The translations under genes were made by a program, and so were the position numbers. Positions 3,057 to 17,324 of a stretch of 64,000 nt of DNA are shown here, one piece after another; the first letter of the stretch is position 1; every line of letters begins with the position of its first letter. The DNA is from an uncultured Thermoleophilia bacterium. Lineage in GTDB: Bacteria; Actinomycetota; Thermoleophilia; UBA2241. The notes beneath the pieces were generated by a model. It was not told the DNA's origin. It saw only the letters and a program-made list of their open reading frames with translations, and ran no database searches. The stretch spans positions 64,834 to 128,833 of the forward strand of contig CAVQLY010000007.1 in NCBI GenBank assembly GCA_963713475.1. Direction: 5' to 3'.

Positions 3057-4100
3057 GTGGCCAAGCAGTACAGCGCACCGCCGGAGATGGTCATCGACCC
3101 GAGCAAGCGCTACACGGCGACCATCAGCACCGACAACGGCGACATCGTCATCGAGCTGTTCGCCGACAAGGCGCCGCGCACCGTCAACAACTTCGTGTTC
3201 CTCGCCCGCGAGGGGTACTACGACGGCGTCACCTTCCACCGCGTCATCAAGGGCTTCATGGCCCAGGGCGGCGACCCGACGGGGAGCGGCAGCGGCGGGC
3301 CCGGCTACAAGTTCGCCGACGAGTTCCATCCCGCGCTGCGGCACGACGGGCCGGGCGTCCTCTCCATGGCCAACGCAGGTCCGGGCACCAACGGCTCGCA
3401 GTTCTTCATCACCTACTCCGCGACGCCGCACCTCAACGACCGCCACACCGTGTTCGGCAAGGTGATCGAGGGCATGGACGTCGTCGAAGCGATCCCCGAG
3501 CGCGATCCCATGCGGGCGCGCGAGCCGGGCATCGCCATGAACTCGGTGGTGATCGCTGAGGAGGAGTGGGTGACGTGTACCGAGGAGCTCCTGCACGGCC
3601 GGGCCTGGCTGTTCGGCGACGACATCAGCACCGACCACATCGCGCCGGGCCGCCTGTTCCACCTGCGCACCAACATGCCCGAGCTCGCCAAGCACGTCCT
3701 TGAGGACGCGCGCCCCGAGTTCGCCGCCGGGATGCGCCCAGGTGACTTCGTCGTGGGCGGGCGCAACTTCGGCCTCGGCTCGAGCCGCGAGCACGCGCCG
3801 CGCATCATCAAGCTGGCCGGCGCCGGCGCCGTGCTGGCGCAGAGCTTTGCGCGGATCTTCTTCCGCAACTCCATCAACGTCGGCCTGCCGGTGCTGCAGT
3901 GCGACACCGGCGCGATCGGCGAGCAAGACGAGCTCGAGGTCGATCTGGAGGCCGGTGAGGTCAGGGACCTGACCACCGGCGCCGTCATCCCGTTCGTCCC
4001 GCTGCCGCCGGTGATGGTGACCATCCTGAACGACGGCGGCCTCGTCGCCCACGTCAAGAAGCACGGCGGCTTCGCGCTGCCGGGAGGACCCGAAGCATGA
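3057..4100 (+). CDS. Cyclophilin-type peptidyl-prolyl isomerase fused in frame to a LeuD/HacB-type dehydratase small subunit
   Basis: N-terminal half is cyclophilin ([33 protein letters not shown]). C-terminal half is LeuD-like ([33 protein letters not shown]). No stop between the halves. Internal GAGGAGGAG followed by in-frame GTG at 3570. Confidence 0.75.
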
Positions 4101-9086: not shown

Positions 9087-10156
9087 CCTCCGTGAGCCCC
9101 CAGCGTTCCGTCGCCGGCCTCTGCGCCGACATCCTGCAAGGAGCCGTCCCGAGCGAGGCGGACCTCGAAGCACTGCTGCGCGCCGGCGAAGAGGCACCTC
9201 TGGTGTTCGCCGCCGCGCGCGAGGCGCGCGCCCGCCACTCGGGCGACGCGGTCTTCCTCTACGGCTTCGTCTACTTCTCCACCTACTGCCGTAACGAGTG
9301 CGCCTTCTGCTTCTACGGCGCGGGCAACGACGAGAGTCCGCGCTATCGCAAGACCACGGACGAGGTCGTCGCGATCTGCCGCGACCTCGCGGCGTCCGGG
9401 GTGGTGCTCCTCGACCTGACCATGGGCGAGGACCCCGCCATCCACGACGAACCGGGCCACACGGCGCTGCTCGAGCTCGTCGGCGCCGTCGCGACGGAGA
9501 CGGGCGCGCCGGTCATGGTCTCGCCGGGCGTGCTGCCGGAGGCCTCGCTGCGCGAGCTGAAGGCCGCCGGTGCGGACTGGTACGCGCTGTATCAGGAGAC
9601 GCACACGCAGGAGCTGTACGAGAGCCTTCGCGTGGGCCAGCCGTTCGCGGCGCGCGTCGCCGCGCGCAGCGCGGCCCGGCGCGCCGGCCTGCTCGTGGAG
9701 GACGGCCTTCTCACGGGCATCGGCGACACGGCCGCCGACCGCGCCCGCTCCATCGTGGCCATGCGCGAGGCAGGCTGGGAGCAGGTCCGCGTGATGACCT
9801 TCGTCCCGCAGGCGGGGACGCCGCTCGCCGACGTGAGCCCTGCCGGCGACGCCGACGAACTGCTCACCATCGCCGCCATGCGTCTCGCCATGCCGGACCG
9901 GCTGATCCCGGCCTCGCTCGACGTGGACGGCATCGCCGGTCTCGAGCGCCGGCTCGAGGCGGGCGCCAATGTGGTCACGTCCATCGTGCCGCCCACGGTC
10001 GGCCTCGCCGGGGTCTCGCAGGCCGAGCTCGACATCGACGAGGGTCACCGGACCGTCCACGGTGTGCTGCCGCACCTCGAGCGGCTGGGGCTGCGGCCGG
10101 CCGGCGTGGACGAGTATCGCGAGCGGATGGCGCGCCTGGCGGTCGTCCCGGGGTGA
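9083..10156 (+). CDS. pylB: Methylornithine synthase PylB (radical SAM lysine mutase)
   Basis: Radical SAM motif YCRNECAFCFY. BioB/HydE-like TIM barrel of about 357 aa, immediately followed by pylC and pylD. Start GTG 9083 (or 9092). Confidence 0.85.
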   Translation: MTSVSPQRSVAGLCADILQGAVPSEADLEALLRAGEEAPLVFAAAREARARHSGDAVFLYGFVYFSTYCRNECAFCFYGAGNDESPRYRKTTDEVVAICRDLAASGVVLLDLTMGEDPAIHDEPGHTALLELVGAVATETGAPVMVSPGVLPEASLRELKAAGADWYALYQETHTQELYESLRVGQPFAARVAARSAARRAGLLVEDGLLTGIGDTAADRARSIVAMREAGWEQVRVMTFVPQAGTPLADVSPAGDADELLTIAAMRLAMPDRLIPASLDVDGIAGLERRLEAGANVVTSIVPPTVGLAGVSQAELDIDEGHRTVHGVLPHLERLGLRPAGVDEYRERMARLAVVPG

Positions 10157-10160
10157 GTCC

Positions 10161-11403
10161 ATGCGTCTGTTGATCGTCGGCGGCAAGCTGCAGGGCACCG
10201 AGGCCGCCTATCTCGCCGACAAGGCCGGGTGGGACACGGTGCTCGTGGACCGGCGCGAGGCGCCGCCGGCCGCCGGCATCGCGCACGTGCACGTGCAGGC
10301 CGACGTCACCGCCGACGAAGCCGCGGCCAGGAGCCTCATCACCTCGTGCGACGCCGTCCTGCCGGCGTGCGAGGACGAGTCCACGCTGGCATGGCTGGCG
10401 GAGCGCGTCCCCGCCTGGGATGTGCCGCTGCTGTTCGACCTCGACGCCTACCGCGTCAGTGCGTCCAAGCTCGCGTCGCGGCGCCTGTTCGAGGACCTGG
10501 ACGTGCCGCGGCCGCGCGAGTGGCCGGCGTGCGGGTTTCCCGTCGTGGTCAAGCCCAGCACGGCCAGCGGCAGCGAGGGCGTGGTCGTGGCGCACGACGA
10601 GGCGGAGCTGGACGCCGCGCGGCGCGAACTGGAGCGCGGGGGCCACGAGGTCGTCGTGGAGGAGTACGTGGCCGGCCCGTCGCTCTCGCTCGAGGTGCTC
10701 GCCTGGGGCGGGCGGGCCGTGCCGCTCCAGGTCACGGGTCTCGAGTTCGACGCCGCCTACGACTGCCGGCGCGTGGTGGCGCCGGTGGGCGAAGCGGCCG
10801 GGGAGCCTGCGGCCGCCGGCCCCGGCGGCGCCTGCGCCTGGGACGCCGCCGTCTCCGCCGGCGTCCTGGCCGCCTTCGACGCCGCCTCCGTGCGCGTCGC
10901 AGAGGGCCTCGGCCTGAACGGCCTCATGGACGTCGAGGTGATGGTCGGCCGCGACGGGCCGAAGCTCCTCGAGATCGATGCCCGCCTGCCCAGCCAGACG
11001 CCGACGGCGGTCTACTGGTCGAGCGGGCTCAACATCGTGGAACTGCTGGAGCGGACCGTGCGCGACGCGGCGCCGCCGGCGATCGACCGGACGTCGCGGC
11101 GCGCCTGCGTCTACCAGCACGTGCGCGCGTCGCGAGGTATGCTGGACGTCCTCGGCGAGCACGTGATGGGCGCCGCCGGGCCGCTGCGTCTGGTGCCCGG
11201 CTTCTTCGGCGCCGACGAGGCGCTCACAGACTACGCGCCAGGGTCCTCCGAGTGGGCGGCGACGCTGATCGTCACCGGGTCCGAGCGTGCGCGAGGCGCG
11301 CGAGCGGGCGGCCGGAGTGGTCGCCGAGCTGGCGCGGCACGAGGGTCTGCGGGCCGCGCCCGAAGACGACCTGCAGAGGGCCGACGAGAGAGGTGCCCGA
11401 TGA
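10161..11403 (+). CDS. pylC: PylC, ATP-grasp (3R)-3-methyl-D-ornithine--L-lysine ligase; apparent +1 frame disruption near 11277-11286
   Basis: N-terminus MRLLIVGGKLQGTEAAYLADKAGWDTVLVDR and ..LLFDLDAYRVSASKLASR.., ..LLEIDARLPSQTP.., ..FFGADEALTDY..EWAATLIVTG match PylC. After ..IVTG the plausible tail SVREARERAAGVVAELARHEGL..ERGAR* continues in frame +1 and ends at TGA 11401-11403, overlapping the pylD ATG. Confidence 0.8.
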
Positions 11404-12206
11404 CACGACTCACAGAGACAGACGTCACCGCGCTCACGCGTGACCTCGAGGCCTTCGAGTCCAGATTGCTCGAGGCGACGGGCCTCGGTCTGCGCGACCT
11501 GGCTCTCCGCACCGTCACCGAAGGCGACCGCTGCGTCCAGCTGCACGGCGCCCGCATCGCCGCGGTGCCCATGTCGTCGGGTGCCGGCGTGATCCCCGGC
11601 TTCTCAGCGTGCGTCGTGGCGACGCTGCTGCACCTCGGCTGCGACGCCTGGATGACCACGCAGCCGGACGTCCGCGGCATCCAGGCGGCCGTCGCCCAGG
11701 GCGCCACCGTCCTCTTCCTCGCCGACGATCACCGCTTCGTAGCGCTCAACCTCACCAAGGCCTGCAGCGTGGACGACGACCCGGCCACGGCCGACGGCTA
11801 CGTCACGGCGCTCGAGACGGCCGCCGGCGGCCTCGAGGGGCGCGACGTGCTGCTCCTCGGCCTCGGTCCGGTGGGGCGCGCCGCCGCCCGCCGCCTGGCG
11901 TCCCGTGGCGCCAAGGTGCTCGTCGTCGAGCCGGATCAGCAGCGCGTCGAAGCCGCCCGCGAGGTGGGCCTCGCGTTCGAGACGACGGACCTTGCCGGAG
12001 GGCTCGCGCGCTGCGACCTCATCTTCGACGCGACGCCGGCGGCCGACATCATCGACGTGGCCGACCTGCGCGAGGGGACCATCGCCGCCGTACCCGGCAT
12101 GCCTTCGGCGTTCACCGCGGCGGCGCAGAAGGCCCTCGGCGTGCGCCACATCCACGAGCCGCTCGCCATCGGCGTCGCGGTCATGGCGGCGCGCGCGCTT
12201 CTCTGA
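11400..12206 (+). CDS. pylD: PylD, pyrrolysine synthase (NAD-dependent dehydrogenase)
   Basis: ..ARIAAVPMSSGAGVIPGFSACVVATLLHLG.., ..VLFLADDHRFVALNL.., Rossmann GLGPVGRAAARRL, ..IFDATPAADII.., ..EPLAIGVAVM.. parallel archaeal PylD. 268 aa. Confidence 0.85.
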   Translation: MTRLTETDVTALTRDLEAFESRLLEATGLGLRDLALRTVTEGDRCVQLHGARIAAVPMSSGAGVIPGFSACVVATLLHLGCDAWMTTQPDVRGIQAAVAQGATVLFLADDHRFVALNLTKACSVDDDPATADGYVTALETAAGGLEGRDVLLLGLGPVGRAAARRLASRGAKVLVVEPDQQRVEAAREVGLAFETTDLAGGLARCDLIFDATPAADIIDVADLREGTIAAVPGMPSAFTAAAQKALGVRHIHEPLAIGVAVMAARALL

Positions 12207-12259
12207 CGCCGCTGCGTCACCGCGCTCACGCCGGCGCCCCGCACCGGCGACCCGCGCGT

Positions 12260-12267
12260 TGTACAAT
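12260..12267 (+). promoter_or_regulatory. Candidate -10 element (TACAAT) for pylT
   Basis: TACAAT at 12262-12267, 10 nt upstream of the tRNA 5' end. No convincing -35. Confidence 0.35.
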
Positions 12268-12277
12268 CGCGTCGCGC

Positions 12278-12350
12278 GGGGGGTCGATCGGAAGGATCAG
12301 CGCGGGCTCTAAACCCACGTAGGCGGGTGTGACTCCCGCACTCCCCGCCA
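12278..12350 (+). tRNA. pylT: tRNA-Pyl (anticodon CUA)
   Basis: 73-nt cloverleaf. Acceptor GGGGGGU/ACUCCCC (one G-U). Single nt between acceptor and D stem. D stem GAUC/GAUC with 5-nt loop GGAAG (no GG). 6-bp anticodon stem (one C-A mismatch). Loop CUCUAAA with CUA at 12309-12311. 3-nt variable loop. T arm GCGGG-UGUGACU-CCCGC without GTTC. Discriminator G. CCA encoded. Confidence 0.85.
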
Positions 12351-12397
12351 CAAGCTCCCTCTCCACCGTCTCCGCTGCCGGAGCCTCCGGCTCGCGG

Positions 12398-13330
12398 TCA
12401 GTCCGCCGAGAAGGTGACGGGGATCTTCACCTCGTCCAGGCGGGAGCCGTCCTCCATGTCCTGATCGAAGACGATCAGGCTGCCGCGCTTCGCCGAGGTC
12501 GAGAAGGGGACCTCCTTGGCGAAGCGGCCGCGGCCGGGCGCGCCGACGCTCGCCTGCATGATCACGTTGACGATGCGGCGGCCCGAGGAGTCCACGAGCC
12601 TCGCCTGGAACGACCCCTCGAACACGCTGGCCGTGCCCGTCAGCGAGAACGGGCTGGTAAGCACGGCTCCGACGCCCGGCGACTCGACGAAGATGTTGGG
12701 CTCGAAGTCGCGCCAGTCGCTGCGACGCTGGGCCTCGGCGAGCGGGACACCCTCGCCGCCCAGCGCCTCGACCGGCTTCCCCTCGATGAGGAACTCGACC
12801 GAGCGCACGGTCGGGAACCGGGTCAGCGTGTAGACCACTTCGGCCACGCGGGCGGTCATGGAGAGACTGCCGCCGCCCGAGGCAAAAGCCTCGGACAGGT
12901 CGACCTGGGCCGTGGTCCCGGAGATGGCGAGCCCGAGGAGTCTCGTGCCGGCCGGCACCGTGCTCGTCAGGCCGGCGGACGTCTCCGCGGCTGTGGGGCC
13001 GGCGAGCAGGGCCTCCATGGCCGCCGTCGCCGGCATGGAGGTGTGCGCGACGCGGCGCTCGGCCACGCCGAGCTTCTCGTCGCGCAGGAAGTACAGCCGC
13101 AGCGACGTCTCGGGGGCGGCCCCCGGTGACGAGGATGGAGACGCCGAGCCCGACGGTATGGACGTAGGGTCGACCGTTGCGGAGTCGGTGGCGGTGGGCT
13201 GCGAGGAGGCGCCGCCGGACGAGCCGCCGCAGGCGGCGAGCAGTGCGGCGCCGGCGAGGATGAGGACTGCCGCGGAGATCAGCAGGAGCGGAAGCAGGCG
13301 GCCGAGGCCGGCTGCGGCGCGACGGGTCAT
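12398..13330 (-). CDS. GerM-domain lipoprotein with C-terminal Ig-like (Gmad2-type) domain
   Basis: Signal peptide with lipobox LLAAC. ..LRLYFLRDEKLG..AAMEALLAGP..TAQVDLS.. is GerM-like. 310 aa. Confidence 0.65.
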   Translation of the reverse strand: MTRRAAAGLGRLLPLLLISAAVLILAGAALLAACGGSSGGASSQPTATDSATVDPTSIPSGSASPSSSPGAAPETSLRLYFLRDEKLGVAERRVAHTSMPATAAMEALLAGPTAAETSAGLTSTVPAGTRLLGLAISGTTAQVDLSEAFASGGGSLSMTARVAEVVYTLTRFPTVRSVEFLIEGKPVEALGGEGVPLAEAQRRSDWRDFEPNIFVESPGVGAVLTSPFSLTGTASVFEGSFQARLVDSSGRRIVNVIMQASVGAPGRGRFAKEVPFSTSAKRGSLIVFDQDMEDGSRLDEVKIPVTFSAD

Positions 13331-13400
13331 CGGGCACCTCGGGTCTGGATGGGCCGGGATGGAACCTTCGACGCGCGCTCCGGGCGCTCCTGCCCGCCCG

Positions 13401-13409
13401 TGCTAGACT
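13401..13409 (+). promoter_or_regulatory. Extended -10 element (TGcTAGACT) predicting a (near) leaderless pylSn transcript
   Basis: Hexamer ends 9 nt before ATG 13419. No Shine-Dalgarno in between. Confidence 0.4.
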
Positions 13410-13418
13410 GGCCTCCCG

Positions 13419-13748
13419 ATGCCGACCGACCCCACCAAAGCGCGGTACTACCGCAAGCAGGTCCCGCTCTTCCGCCTGGTCGAGAAGGTCAAGCTGTGGC
13501 CGTCGCGGCGCGGCATCCTGCACGGGATCAGGGAGTTCGAGGAGCGCGGCTCCTACGCCGTCGTGGTGACGCACTGCAACAAGCACATGGTCGTCCACGA
13601 CTCCAAGACGAGCCGCGCCGCCCGCTGGCTGCGCAACAAGTGGTTCGCGGAGGCCTGTCCGCAGTGCCGCATCCCCGAGTGGAAGCTCCAGAAGTACGCC
13701 TCGACGCAGTTCAAGCGGGGCTACGGGTCGCACCTCAAGGACCTGTGA
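13419..13748 (+). CDS. pylSn: PylSn, stand-alone N-terminal tRNA-Pyl-binding domain of pyrrolysyl-tRNA synthetase
   Basis: ..KLWPSRRGILHGIREFEERGSYAVVVTHCNKHMVVHDSKTSRAARWLRNKWFAEACPQCRIPEWKLQKY.. parallels the Methanosarcina PylS N-terminus ([52 protein letters not shown]). 109 aa. Confidence 0.85.
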   Translation: MPTDPTKARYYRKQVPLFRLVEKVKLWPSRRGILHGIREFEERGSYAVVVTHCNKHMVVHDSKTSRAARWLRNKWFAEACPQCRIPEWKLQKYASTQFKRGYGSHLKDL

Positions 13749-13800: not shown

Positions 13801-14685
13801 CTAGAGCAGCCGCCAGCTCTCCGGCCGCAACTGCGTCGCGGCCGGTGCGTCCAGCACTCTGTCCAGCTGCGCGACGATGGCCGCCTTGTCGCCGGGCAGG
13901 CGGCCTCCGATCGGAAGGTAGTTCGAGGCGTGGTTGCAGCGGAAGAGGCAGTCGCTGACGTCGAGGTTCGCGACGATCTCGCGCAGTTCGCGCAGGATCC
14001 CGATGGAGTCCGGCAGCACGACCTGGCTGGTCGCCACCTTGCGCTCCATGGCCGTCCCGGGGGTCAGCATGAGGGTGAGCAGCCCGATGTACTCCGGGTC
14101 GATGGTCGAGAGGACCTCGCCGGTGGCCACTGCGTGCACCAGCGAGCGCTCGCGCCCGGCGAGCCCGAGGATCGCGGTCACCGAGAGCTGCATGCCGGCT
14201 TCCGACGCTCGCCGGCAGCCCTCGATCTGCTCCGCCACGGTGATGCCCTTGTGGATGTCGGCGAGCGTTTGCTCGTCGCCTGATTCGAGGCCGAGGTAGA
14301 GGAGCTCGACGCCGCGCTCACGCAGCGCCGCGAGCTCGTCCACGGACTTGCCGAGCAGGTTCCGCGCGTTGGCGTAGCTGCTCACGCGCTCCAGGTTCGG
14401 AAGCGCCCGGTGCAGGAGGTCGAGGATCGCGTCGAGCTTGCGCGAGCTGAGCGCCATGGCGTCGCCGTCGGCCAGAAAGACGCGGCGCACCCGCTGGCGG
14501 ACGGTGACCGGGAGGCCGGTGATGTCCTCGACGACCTCGTCGAACGGACGCACGGCGAAGGGCTTCTCCAGGTACGTGCCGCAGAAGTCGCAGGTGTTGT
14601 TGGAGCAGCCGTACGTGACCTGGACGATCAGGCTGTCGGCCTCGCTCGGAGGGCGGATGACGGCACCGTGGTATCGCATGTCCAC
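13801..14685 (-). CDS. Radical SAM protein of unknown function with atypical CX4CX2C cluster motif
   Basis: ..VQVTYGCSNNTCDFCGTY.. plus ..VFLADGDAMAL.., ..LYLGLESGDE.. radical SAM core. 294 aa. GTG start. Ends in TAG. Divergent from the corrinoid protein gene. Confidence 0.7.
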   Translation of the reverse strand: MDMRYHGAVIRPPSEADSLIVQVTYGCSNNTCDFCGTYLEKPFAVRPFDEVVEDITGLPVTVRQRVRRVFLADGDAMALSSRKLDAILDLLHRALPNLERVSSYANARNLLGKSVDELAALRERGVELLYLGLESGDEQTLADIHKGITVAEQIEGCRRASEAGMQLSVTAILGLAGRERSLVHAVATGEVLSTIDPEYIGLLTLMLTPGTAMERKVATSQVVLPDSIGILRELREIVANLDVSDCLFRCNHASNYLPIGGRLPGDKAAIVAQLDRVLDAPAATQLRPESWRLL

Positions 14686-14963: not shown

Positions 14964-15597
14964 ATGGCAGACATCTACCAGGAAGCAGCCGAGAGCATCG
15001 TGAACGCCGACAGGGCATCGGTCCGAGGAGATCGCGCAGCGCGCGCTCGACTCGGGCATCGCCCCAGCGGACATCATGCAGAACGGCTTCGTCAAGGGCA
15101 TCCAGGAGGTCGGCGACCTCTTCGAGAGCGGTGAGGTCTTCCTCCCCGAGCTGATGATGAGCGCGGACGCCATGGCCGGCGCCACCGAGATCACAAACGC
15201 CGCCCTCGAGGGCGAGGCCGCCGAGGCCAAGGGCATCATGGTCATCGGCACCGTCCAGGGCGACGTGCACGACATCGGCAAGGCGATCGTCATCGCCTAC
15301 CTCAAGGCCAACGGCTACGAGGTCACCGACCTCGGCCGCGACGTCTCTGCCGACACCTTCATCGACAAGGCCAAGGAGCTCAACGCCGACGTCATCGGCA
15401 TGAGCGCCCTGCTCACCACCACCATGGAAGAGCAGAAGAAGGTCATCAAGCGCATCAAGGACGAGGGCCTCTCCTACAAGACGGTCGTCGGCGGCGCCCC
15501 GTGCACGCAGCGCTGGGCCGACCAGATCGGCGCCGACGCCTACGCCGAAGACGCCAACGACGGCGTCAAGAAGATCGACGCGCTGCTCGGCAAGTAA
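14964..15597 (+). CDS. Methyltransferase-cognate corrinoid protein (MtmC/MtbC/MttC-like); apparent +1 frame disruption near 15018-15027
   Basis: N-terminal cap helix MADIYQEAAESIVNADRA.. (frame 0) continues as EEIAQRALDSGIAPADIMQNGFVKGIQEVGDLFESGEVFLPELMMSADAM (frame 1). B12-binding DxHxxG motif (GDVHDIGK). ..SALLTTTM... About 210 aa if repaired. Confidence 0.75.
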
Positions 15598-16463: not shown

Positions 16464-17324
16464 CTAGAGGTTGAGGCGCACGCCGTCGACGTAGCTGAGG
16501 CTGCGTCCGGCGCGCTCGATATTGGGGTAGCCTTCGCGCGCCATGATGAGCCGCTCGACGCCGAAGCCGAGGCCCACCCACGGGTCGACGATGCCCCAGT
16601 TGCTGTCGAGGGGGTGGGGGCCGAGGCCGGCGGAGCACACCTCGGCGCCGTTCACGAGCACGTCGACCATCTCGCCGTACACCTCGGACTCGGTCACCTC
16701 GAGCTCGTAGTGCGCGATGCCCGCCGCGCGCATGACCAGTGACGCGAGCTCGACGAGCCGTGTGCGCCCCTCGCTCTCGGGCCTGCCGAGCTCGACGAGG
16801 TTGAGCATCGTGAACTCGTTGAGGTGGCTGGCGCCCTTGCTGTCGCGGCGGAAGCAGGGGCCGATCTCGAAGATGCCGAACGGCTTGCTCCAGTTGCGGT
16901 CGAGGCGCCGCAGCAGCGTGTACAGGTTCGGCGCCAGCATGGGCCGCAGGCAGCGGCCGTCCTCGAGCCAGAACACCTGGTCGCGCAGGGGATGGCCGTG
17001 CTCGATGCCCATCTTGCGCAGGGAGTCCGAGGCGATGATCAGCGGCGTGGCGACGCGCACGAAGCCGGCGTCGGTGAGGGCATCGCTGAGAACGCGCTCG
17101 AGCTCGATCAGCTGCGGCGCGCGCCTGCCGGCGCGCAGGTCCTTGAGCCGCTGCCGGCCGTCCTTCACGAGCTCGCCCTCGAGGCGCTTGAAGGCGGCGT
17201 CGCGCAGCTGGACGTCGGCGAACAACTCGTCGAGGACGAGCGGGTCGGCGCCGAGCTCGCGCAGCCGCTGCGACTGCGTCGCCGTGAGGCGAATGCGGAG
17301 GGCTTCGGCTTCGTCGGGCGTCAT
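16464..17324 (-). CDS. pylSc: PylSc, catalytic domain of pyrrolysyl-tRNA synthetase (bacterial split type)
   Basis: ..CLRPMLAPNLYTLLRRLDR..IFEIGPCFRRDSKGASHLNEFTMLNLVELG.., ..IVDPWVGLGFGVERLIMAREG.., C-terminus ..RSLSYVDGVRLNL closely parallel Desulfitobacterium/Methanosarcina PylS. ATG 17324 has a GAGGAGGAGG RBS and overlaps the amidase stop (ATGA). Ends in TAG. Confidence 0.9.
   Translation of the reverse strand: MTPDEAEALRIRLTATQSQRLRELGADPLVLDELFADVQLRDAAFKRLEGELVKDGRQRLKDLRAGRRAPQLIELERVLSDALTDAGFVRVATPLIIASDSLRKMGIEHGHPLRDQVFWLEDGRCLRPMLAPNLYTLLRRLDRNWSKPFGIFEIGPCFRRDSKGASHLNEFTMLNLVELGRPESEGRTRLVELASLVMRAAGIAHYELEVTESEVYGEMVDVLVNGAEVCSAGLGPHPLDSNWGIVDPWVGLGFGVERLIMAREGYPNIERAGRSLSYVDGVRLNL

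Follow-up and report, generated by a model that had tools for sequence, protein, structure and literature searches.

The window, as we call the whole 64-kb stretch of DNA analysed here, comes from an uncultured soil bacterium of the Thermoleophilia (Actinomycetota) and contains a tRNA-Pyl gene, pylT, inside a complete pyl cluster (Table 1). The pyl genes were named by the curated cut-offs of NCBIfam equivalog HMMs; pylB, pylC, pylD, pylSn and pylSc, five genes within 8.2 kb, all scored above these cut-offs. The stop codon of pylD at 12206 leaves a spacer of 71 nt before pylT, and pylSn and pylSc lie 1.1 and 4.1 kb from it, respectively. The tRNA gene thus stands apart from both synthetase halves, as a first-pass annotation of this DNA had noted.

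Between pylT and pylSn is a lipoprotein gene on the opposite strand, convergent with pylT and kept in that place across the Thermoleophilia clade; the radical SAM gene between pylSn and the corrinoid protein gene is likewise a conserved member of the clade's cluster. The corrinoid gene adjoins pylSc, both within the clade and in non-clade clusters of the arrangement pylSc–corrinoid–pylBCD–pylT–pylSn. The best solved relative of the window PylSc is that of D. hafniense (3DSQ/2ZNI; 307 bits), and the window protein keeps R140 and R144, the residues reported to contact position 8 of the tRNA in D. hafniense. Open reading frames that overlap pylT in other frames are by-products of the 70% GC content; the one at 12309–13733 (−) was tested and matched no family.

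Table 1. Features of the pyl cluster, in window coordinates
Feature	Position	Strand	Support and remarks
pylB (methylornithine synthase)	9119–10156	+	TIGR03910, 440 bits (cut-off 348); exact start uncertain
pylC (ligase)	10161–11403	+	TIGR03909, 340 bits (cut-off 248); 1-nt insertion near 11284
pylD (dehydrogenase, 268 aa)	11400–12206	+	TIGR03911, 200 bits (cut-off 150)
Putative -10 promoter hexamer TACAAT	12262–12267	+	Ends 10 nt before the mature 5' end; phylogenetic footprint
Conserved GCGC leader	12274–12277	+	G-4 in 27/33, C-3 in 29/33, G-2 in 33/33, C-1 in 33/33
pylT, tRNA-Pyl(CUA)	12278–12350	+	73 nt, CCA encoded; ARAGORN and out-of-clade covariance model
Pyrimidine-rich tract CTCCCTCTCC, just 3' of CCA	12355–12364	+	Candidate trailer, termination or processing signal
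Germane/Gmad2-type lipoprotein gene	12398–13333	−	Pfam annotations of syntenic genes in L001–L004; tblastn synteny map
pylSn (tRNA-binding small subunit of PylRS)	13419–13748	+	TIGR03912, 127 bits (cut-off 51)
Radical SAM gene (~292 aa)	13801–14685	−	PF04055; position conserved in the clade
MtbC-like methylamine-type corrinoid protein	15076–15597	+	NF041607, 206 bits, and TIGR02370, 197.5 bits, both below curated cut-offs
pylSc (catalytic subunit of PylRS)	16464–17324	−	TIGR02367, 321.5 bits (cut-off 178)

Relatives of the locus were collected by scanning a reference set, in which each species is represented by a single genome, for PylSc; 556 were found, and the best 80 were examined. An M. 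mazei sequence was included in the PylSc alignment used for the scan, only for picking conserved motifs. These 80 loci were dominated by MAGs of uncultured Thermoleophilia and other Actinomycetota, with PylSc identities of at most 96%; more than 50 of them carry one or the other label. PylD has many close standalone homologues of 268 aa (67–88% identity). The loci were mapped with tblastn and ARAGORN, and a covariance model filled one gap (L027).

Identity and fold of pylT

ARAGORN called one tRNA in the whole window, a tRNA-Pyl at 12278–12350. The same interval was the sole match (88.3 bits, E ~1e-19) in 128 kb of searched strand for a covariance model built from 11 distinct tRNA-Pyl genes, all from bacteria other than Thermoleophilia. 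When 24 distinct sequences were aligned, the cloverleaf reached 98.7% pairing, and at 10 pairs both partners had changed; none of 500 column shuffles did as well, and register-shifted controls collapsed. Five of the six anticodon-stem pairs show compensatory change among relatives, and an unconstrained RNAalifold consensus recovers the cloverleaf. Together with the HMM-identified pylB, pylC, pylD, pylSn and pylSc, these results confirm that 12278–12350 is a bona fide pylT, encoding a tRNA-Pyl with anticodon CUA, as the first-pass annotation had proposed from its fold.

In contrast to the purpose-built covariance model, Rfam gave no tRNA match, either across the window at gathering thresholds or in 12150–12450 at E ≤ 10. 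This silence is uninformative, and the sub-threshold result with the general tRNA model, an outcome that the first-pass annotation had named as a refutation, is not diagnostic, because the textbook pylT that lies just upstream of pylSc in Candidatus Formimonas warabiya (L082, 9750–10050) is equally missed at E ≤ 10. The folding-energy z-score of pylT on its own was unremarkable (-1.1). As a separate observation, Rfam 15 contains no model able to detect tRNA-Pyl, and annotation pipelines based on it will miss such genes silently.

[quoted passage not shown] The window sequence, GGGGGGUCGAUCGGAAGGAUCAGCGCGGGCUCUAAACCCACGUAGGCGGGUGUGACUCCCGCACUCCCCGCCA, has GGGGGGU/ACUCCCC as its acceptor stem, in which G5.U65 is a wobble, C8 as the only nucleotide between acceptor and D stems, the D stem GAUC/GAUC, the 7-nt anticodon loop CUCUAAA, the T stem GCGGG/CCCGC, a discriminator G (G73) and a CCA encoded in the DNA. 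Its acceptor stem, single linker nucleotide, anticodon loop, discriminator and CCA had all been read correctly, as had the positions of the tRNA, of CUA (12309–12311), of the C–A mismatch (12303/12317) and of the upstream TACAAT. The T loop, UGUGACU, carries U54 G55 U56 and does lack the T-psi-C consensus, as claimed. The D loop is 5 nt long, again as claimed; it had also been described as lacking GG, which is incorrect, since it reads GGAAG with a GG dinucleotide at its 5' edge. The canonical G18–psi55 and G19–C56 partners are absent, and U54/A58 and purine 57 are kept; what is missing is a D loop of canonical size with its G18G19/T-psi-C partnership, not a literal GG.

The region between the D stem and the anticodon loop required more extensive correction. 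The parts listed in the first-pass annotation for a 73-nt tRNA sum to only 72 nt, and two nucleotides, A22 and G23, lie between the D stem and the 6-bp anticodon stem. That stem, CGCGGG/CCCACG (24–29/37–42), does have the six positions described, five of them paired and one the C26.A40 mismatch. G23 pairs with U43 in the minimum free energy fold of the single sequence, so that a stem of 7 bp and a variable region of 2 nt describe the molecule better than the 6 bp and 3 nt first given, and this is the best predicted fold of the 73-nt form. The variable region, U43-A44-G45, keeps its 3 nt if 23:43 is a tertiary pair (class I tRNAs have 4–5 nt). In the unconstrained RNAalifold consensus 23:43 pairs in 15 of 15 distinct 73-nt relatives (GU in six, GC in six, AU in three). 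The covariation support for a seventh pair is weak, because G pairs with either pyrimidine and A23–U43 occurs in only three sequences. On sequence grounds 23:43 may be either a true seventh pair of the stem or the equivalent of the tertiary pair 26:44.

At 26:40 most sequences have U–A and several have C–G, including one clade member (L036). C26.A40 occurs in three distinct sequences representing five species-level genomes (the window, L005 and L012 with one sequence; L048; L050). Because it recurs in five species-level genomes, the mismatch is a tolerated natural variant rather than a sequencing error of one assembly, and it is plausibly an intermediate between U–A and C–G.

In D. hafniense, G73 and G1:C72 are major identity elements, G8, G10:C25 and A11:U24 are moderate ones, and the tRNA has a G5.U68 wobble (PMC1851642); work on the archaeal enzyme added U33, A37 and G51:C63 (Krahn et al., 2020; PMC7609411). 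G73, G1:C72, G10:C25 and A11:U24 are present in the window gene and invariant across the 24 distinct sequences, and U33, A37, G51:C63, U54/A58, purine 57 and the G5.U68 wobble (published numbering) are also present in it. G8 is absent and replaced by C8, which is found in every Thermoleophilia clade sequence aligned. Because position 8 varies (U, A, G or C) among the other bacterial tRNA-Pyl genes, G8 does not define the family.

Tested by alignment, the window tRNA is 79–84% identical to the 72-nt bacterial tRNA-Pyl of the D. hafniense type, represented by Paradesulfitobacterium (L080), Candidatus Formimonas (L082) and Desulfosporosinus (L076 and L083). It shares with this type the GGGGGGU acceptor with its G5.U wobble, the GAUC/GAUC D stem, the 5-nt D loop, CUCUAAA, the invariant A–G that ends the variable region, a G/C-rich T stem of 5 bp, U54/A58, G73 and the encoded CCA, and in both cases the synthetase is split into PylSn and PylSc, the window PylSc being nearest to the solved D. 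hafniense enzyme. The differences are the extra A22 of the window tRNA, which brings it to 73 nt, could extend the anticodon stem to 7 bp and would leave 2 nt in the variable region, its C26.A40 mismatch, and C8 in place of G8 (PMC1851642). The clade and, outside it, L063 and L065 have this additional nucleotide, at column 22 of the alignment, over the 72-nt form.

The archaeal tRNA-Pyl of Methanosarcina, considered only as a lead, shares the overall architecture, with the single acceptor/D linker, the GAUC D stem, the 5-nt D loop, CUCUAAA, the short variable region and G73; it differs in its acceptor and T-arm sequences, its length of 72 nt and its U8. Its partner is a fused PylSn–PylSc enzyme, and the tRNA gene heads the pylTSBCD operon.

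A separate observation concerns the anticodon loop elsewhere in the sample. Three tRNA-Pyl genes, in two Eubacteriales MAGs and one Aminicenantes MAG (L072, 14731–14802; L075, 14735–14806; L077, 14732–14803), have the loop CCCUAAA, with C33 replacing U33, a nucleotide that is nearly universal and a reported identity or efficiency element in archaeal PylRS systems.

Gene order and promoter of pylT

The Thermoleophilia clade has a single invariant gene order: nitroreductase, pylB, pylC, pylD, pylT, lipoprotein gene (−), pylSn, radical SAM gene (−), corrinoid gene, pylSc (−). pylT was mapped in 34 clade loci and is downstream of pylD in 33. In 31 of them no more than ~350 nt separate it from where the pylD match ends; two loci have an insertion between the two genes and one has no pylD match. 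The exact tRNA sequence of the window recurs in two other species-level genomes, L005 and L012, where pylC and pylD are intact. One further observation is that L002 and L030 lie on the same contig (contig_19728) of a Thermoleophilia genome, with pylSc ~17 kb from pylD instead of ~4 kb, the catalytic gene having moved further away from the other pyl genes.

Outside the clade, MAGs of Dehalococcoidales, Aminicenantes, Syntrophobacterales and Eubacteriales, and one unclassified bacterium, have the order pylSc, corrinoid, pylB, pylC, pylD, pylT, pylSn (L055, L063–L065, L071, L072, L075, L077, L079), with pylT ~25–60 nt after pylD in all but L063. These clusters resemble that of the window in having pylT after pylD on the same strand and before pylSn, and in including a corrinoid-protein gene; in two of them (L063 and L065) the tRNA is also 73 nt long, with an extra junction nucleotide. 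In the Thermoleophilia, unlike these clusters, pylSc and the corrinoid gene lie beyond pylSn, pylSc is inverted, and the inserted lipoprotein and radical SAM genes set pylT apart from both synthetase genes. Paradesulfitobacterium has the order pylSc, pylD, pylT, and in L081 pylT precedes pylB. The textbook pylT–pylSc order, in which pylT stands before pylSc and not after pylD as in the window, was found among the mapped loci only in Desulfosporosinus and Formimonas (L076, L082, L083). The sample is biased towards relatives of the window PylSc, and these counts give no global frequency of gene orders.

From this comparison, pylD–pylT–pylSn looks like a shared bacterial core, from which the Thermoleophilia order would differ by relocation of the pylSc and corrinoid genes, inversion of pylSc and insertion of two opposite-strand genes. 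The first-pass annotation had implied that the position of pylT 71 nt after pylD is out of the ordinary. The distance is correct, and the comparison indicates that the position is normal for the lineage, because pylD–pylT is the standard order in the clade and in several other bacterial lineages.

The first-pass annotation had also assigned pylT a -10 element of its own, TACAAT. Actinobacterial promoters have a -10 element of the form TAnnnT and a weak -35 element. Of 33 distinct clade upstream sequences, 28 have a TAnnnT hexamer that ends 9–11 nt upstream of pylT (TACAAT in 15, TAGAAT in five, TAGGAT in three, with other variants in the rest), a strong footprint that supports the assignment. 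The gene itself averages 96.4% identity to the window across relatives, as against 30–36%, essentially random, for its flanks. Several non-clade pylD–pylT loci, among them L064, L065 and L071 of the clusters described above, also have a TAnAAT-like or -10-like hexamer ~10–12 nt upstream of the tRNA.

This conservation bears on a rival account, in which pylT has no promoter of its own, the tRNA being the 3' end of a pylBCD–pylT transcript freed by RNase P and nucleases, and TACAAT being incidental. The same-strand position of pylT 71 nt past pylD and the wide conservation of the pylD–pylT order are consistent with such an arrangement, as is the outcome of an E. coli-type scan of 12100–12480, which found neither a two-hexamer -35/-10 promoter nor an intrinsic terminator, and thus no terminator-like site between the two genes. 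We nevertheless consider this account unlikely. At 70% GC the background frequency of TAnnnT is 0.00075 per position, far from the 28 of 33 observed at a nearly constant distance, and G-4 is conserved as well, whereas the pylD–pylT spacer ranges from 26 to ~1,580 nt and is otherwise unalignable. Moreover, other DNA separates pylD and pylT in L039, L042 and L063, and in L039 and L042 a -10-like hexamer stays with the tRNA. Because TAnnnT and G-4 are kept at a fixed distance from the tRNA while the spacer is unalignable, we infer that pylT carries a dedicated promoter consisting of a -10 element only. G-4 would then be the transcription start, with a leader of ~4 nt, and read-through co-transcription from pylD may operate alongside this dedicated promoter.

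The sequence 3' of the gene also shows a conserved bias. Over +1 to +15 the clade averages 74.5% pyrimidine (background 49%) and 29% T (background 14%), and +7 to +9 are pyrimidine in 33 of 34 clade loci. We note in passing that CTCCCTCTCC resembles an anti-Shine–Dalgarno-like CCUCC string. Further downstream, in the gap where pylT and the lipoprotein gene converge, the near-palindrome GCCGGAG-C-CTCCGGC (12377–12391) may form a bidirectional stem-loop without a U tract. At the other end of the tRNA, base pairs in the precursor between C-1 and G73 and between G-2 and C74 are conceivable, which would lengthen the acceptor helix and could bear on the choice of the RNase P site.

The pylC frameshift and the state of the pyl system

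In the window, pylC contains an extra base near 11284 that is absent from seven of seven aligned relatives. The frame is lost ~40 codons before the natural ATGA stop/start overlap, and the shifted ORF (10161–12206) reads 39 codons rich in Arg, Gly and Ala before it enters pylD, so that PylC and PylD appear fused. In relatives pylC and pylD are separate, with a 4-nt overlap. A second insertion of one base, at ~3573–3580 (ORF 3057–4100), gives GTGTAC where relatives have GTGAC; it removes an overlapping stop/start and fuses a cyclophilin PPIase gene in frame to a LeuD-like gene. A genuine PylC–PylD fusion protein was therefore rejected in favour of a 1-nt indel, as the relatives' genes are all separate and the window holds a second indel of the same kind. 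The occurrence of two such indels at gene junctions within 64 kb, the second fusing PPIase and LeuD at ~3578, suggests that they are errors of the assembly. If real, the pylC frameshift could abolish pyrrolysine synthesis in the strain.

No pyrrolysine-dependent gene was detected in the window. A scan for in-frame TAG genes by GC3 only was too noisy at 70% GC, and a three-position coding filter gave no in-frame TAG candidate in the window. No methylamine methyltransferase (mttB, mtbB or mtmB with in-frame TAG) was present among the ORFs of the 64 kb, nor was a cognate methyltransferase found near the corrinoid gene at 15076–15597. TAG is the stop codon of three of 24 well-supported window genes. 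The multi-kb insertions in the clusters of relatives also lacked a Pyl-dependent methyltransferase or any other candidate for read-through; they hold only housekeeping genes or unrelated cargo (aminotransferase, YceI, sulfate permease, ATPase subunit, porin).

Taken at face value, the ruin of the last ~40 codons of pylC with its fusion to pylD, the C26.A40 mismatch in place of the U–A of most relatives and the lack of a Pyl-dependent gene in the window would fit a decaying relic, a tRNA no longer used in a pyl system that is being lost. This we regard as very unlikely. The insertion at ~3578 argues for indel errors in assembly and against a biological cause, and beyond the pylC indel the DNA still matches L005 at 93% identity in the original frame. 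C26.A40 is found also in L005 and L012, which have the same tRNA, and in L048 and L050, and the clusters of all four are intact; the remaining pyl genes of the window are full-length HMM matches above cut-off. That the locus is a chance tRNA-like fold, or an amber suppressor derived from an ordinary tRNA and unrelated to pyrrolysine, has a negligible probability in our view, since the missing Rfam match at E ≤ 10 and the folding-energy z-score of -1.1 are set against an 88-bit match to the out-of-clade tRNA-Pyl model, the full tRNA-Pyl-specific architecture, the position of the gene inside a complete pyl cluster and the failure of Rfam on the Candidatus Formimonas warabiya pylT also.

Pyrrolysine decoding in the Thermoleophilia

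The reading that we prefer, and hold to be highly probable from the sequence comparisons, is that 12278–12350 encodes a functional amber-suppressor tRNA-Pyl of this uncultured Thermoleophilia bacterium. pylT would be transcribed from its own -10-only promoter, with a start ~4 nt ahead of the mature tRNA; the 5' leader would be trimmed by RNase P, and addition of CCA would be unnecessary. The transcript is predicted to fold into the compact tRNA-Pyl cloverleaf, which the split PylSc and PylSn would charge with pyrrolysine made by PylB, PylC and PylD from the adjacent genes. The charged tRNA would then decode UAG in pyrrolysine-dependent genes that lie outside the window.

Guo et al. (2022; PMC9630628) counted 81 bacterial genomes with PylRS, just two of them from Actinobacteria, and the literature searched gave no meaningful link between pyrrolysine and the Thermoleophilia. 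A broader proposal, possible but in our estimate doubtful, is that the Thermoleophilia-type tRNA-Pyl is a distinct structural subclass, characterized by 73 nt, A22, a 7-bp anticodon stem, two variable nucleotides, C8 and tolerance of C.A, with a core perhaps recognized differently by its PylSn and PylSc, and that it is the mark of a large clade of Actinomycetota from soils and wetlands that decode Pyl and are absent from the literature searched. If this were true, the tRNA could be orthogonal by nature to the PylRS/tRNA classes that genetic code expansion now employs.

The window pylT leaves the understanding of pyrrolysine decoding unchanged. It adds a member to a well-known family, in a 73-nt variant specific to its lineage, and its position and promoter are typical of that lineage. 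At the level of genes, an abundant uncultured lineage of Thermoleophilia is confirmed to have the complete apparatus for encoding pyrrolysine. In the loci surveyed pylD–pylT(–pylSn), rather than pylT–pylS, is a common bacterial order, with pylT there probably served by a dedicated promoter. With the 73-nt variant, nature provides a small experiment on the core of tRNA-Pyl that is read by PylSn, and it could interest engineers of orthogonal PylRS/tRNA pairs.
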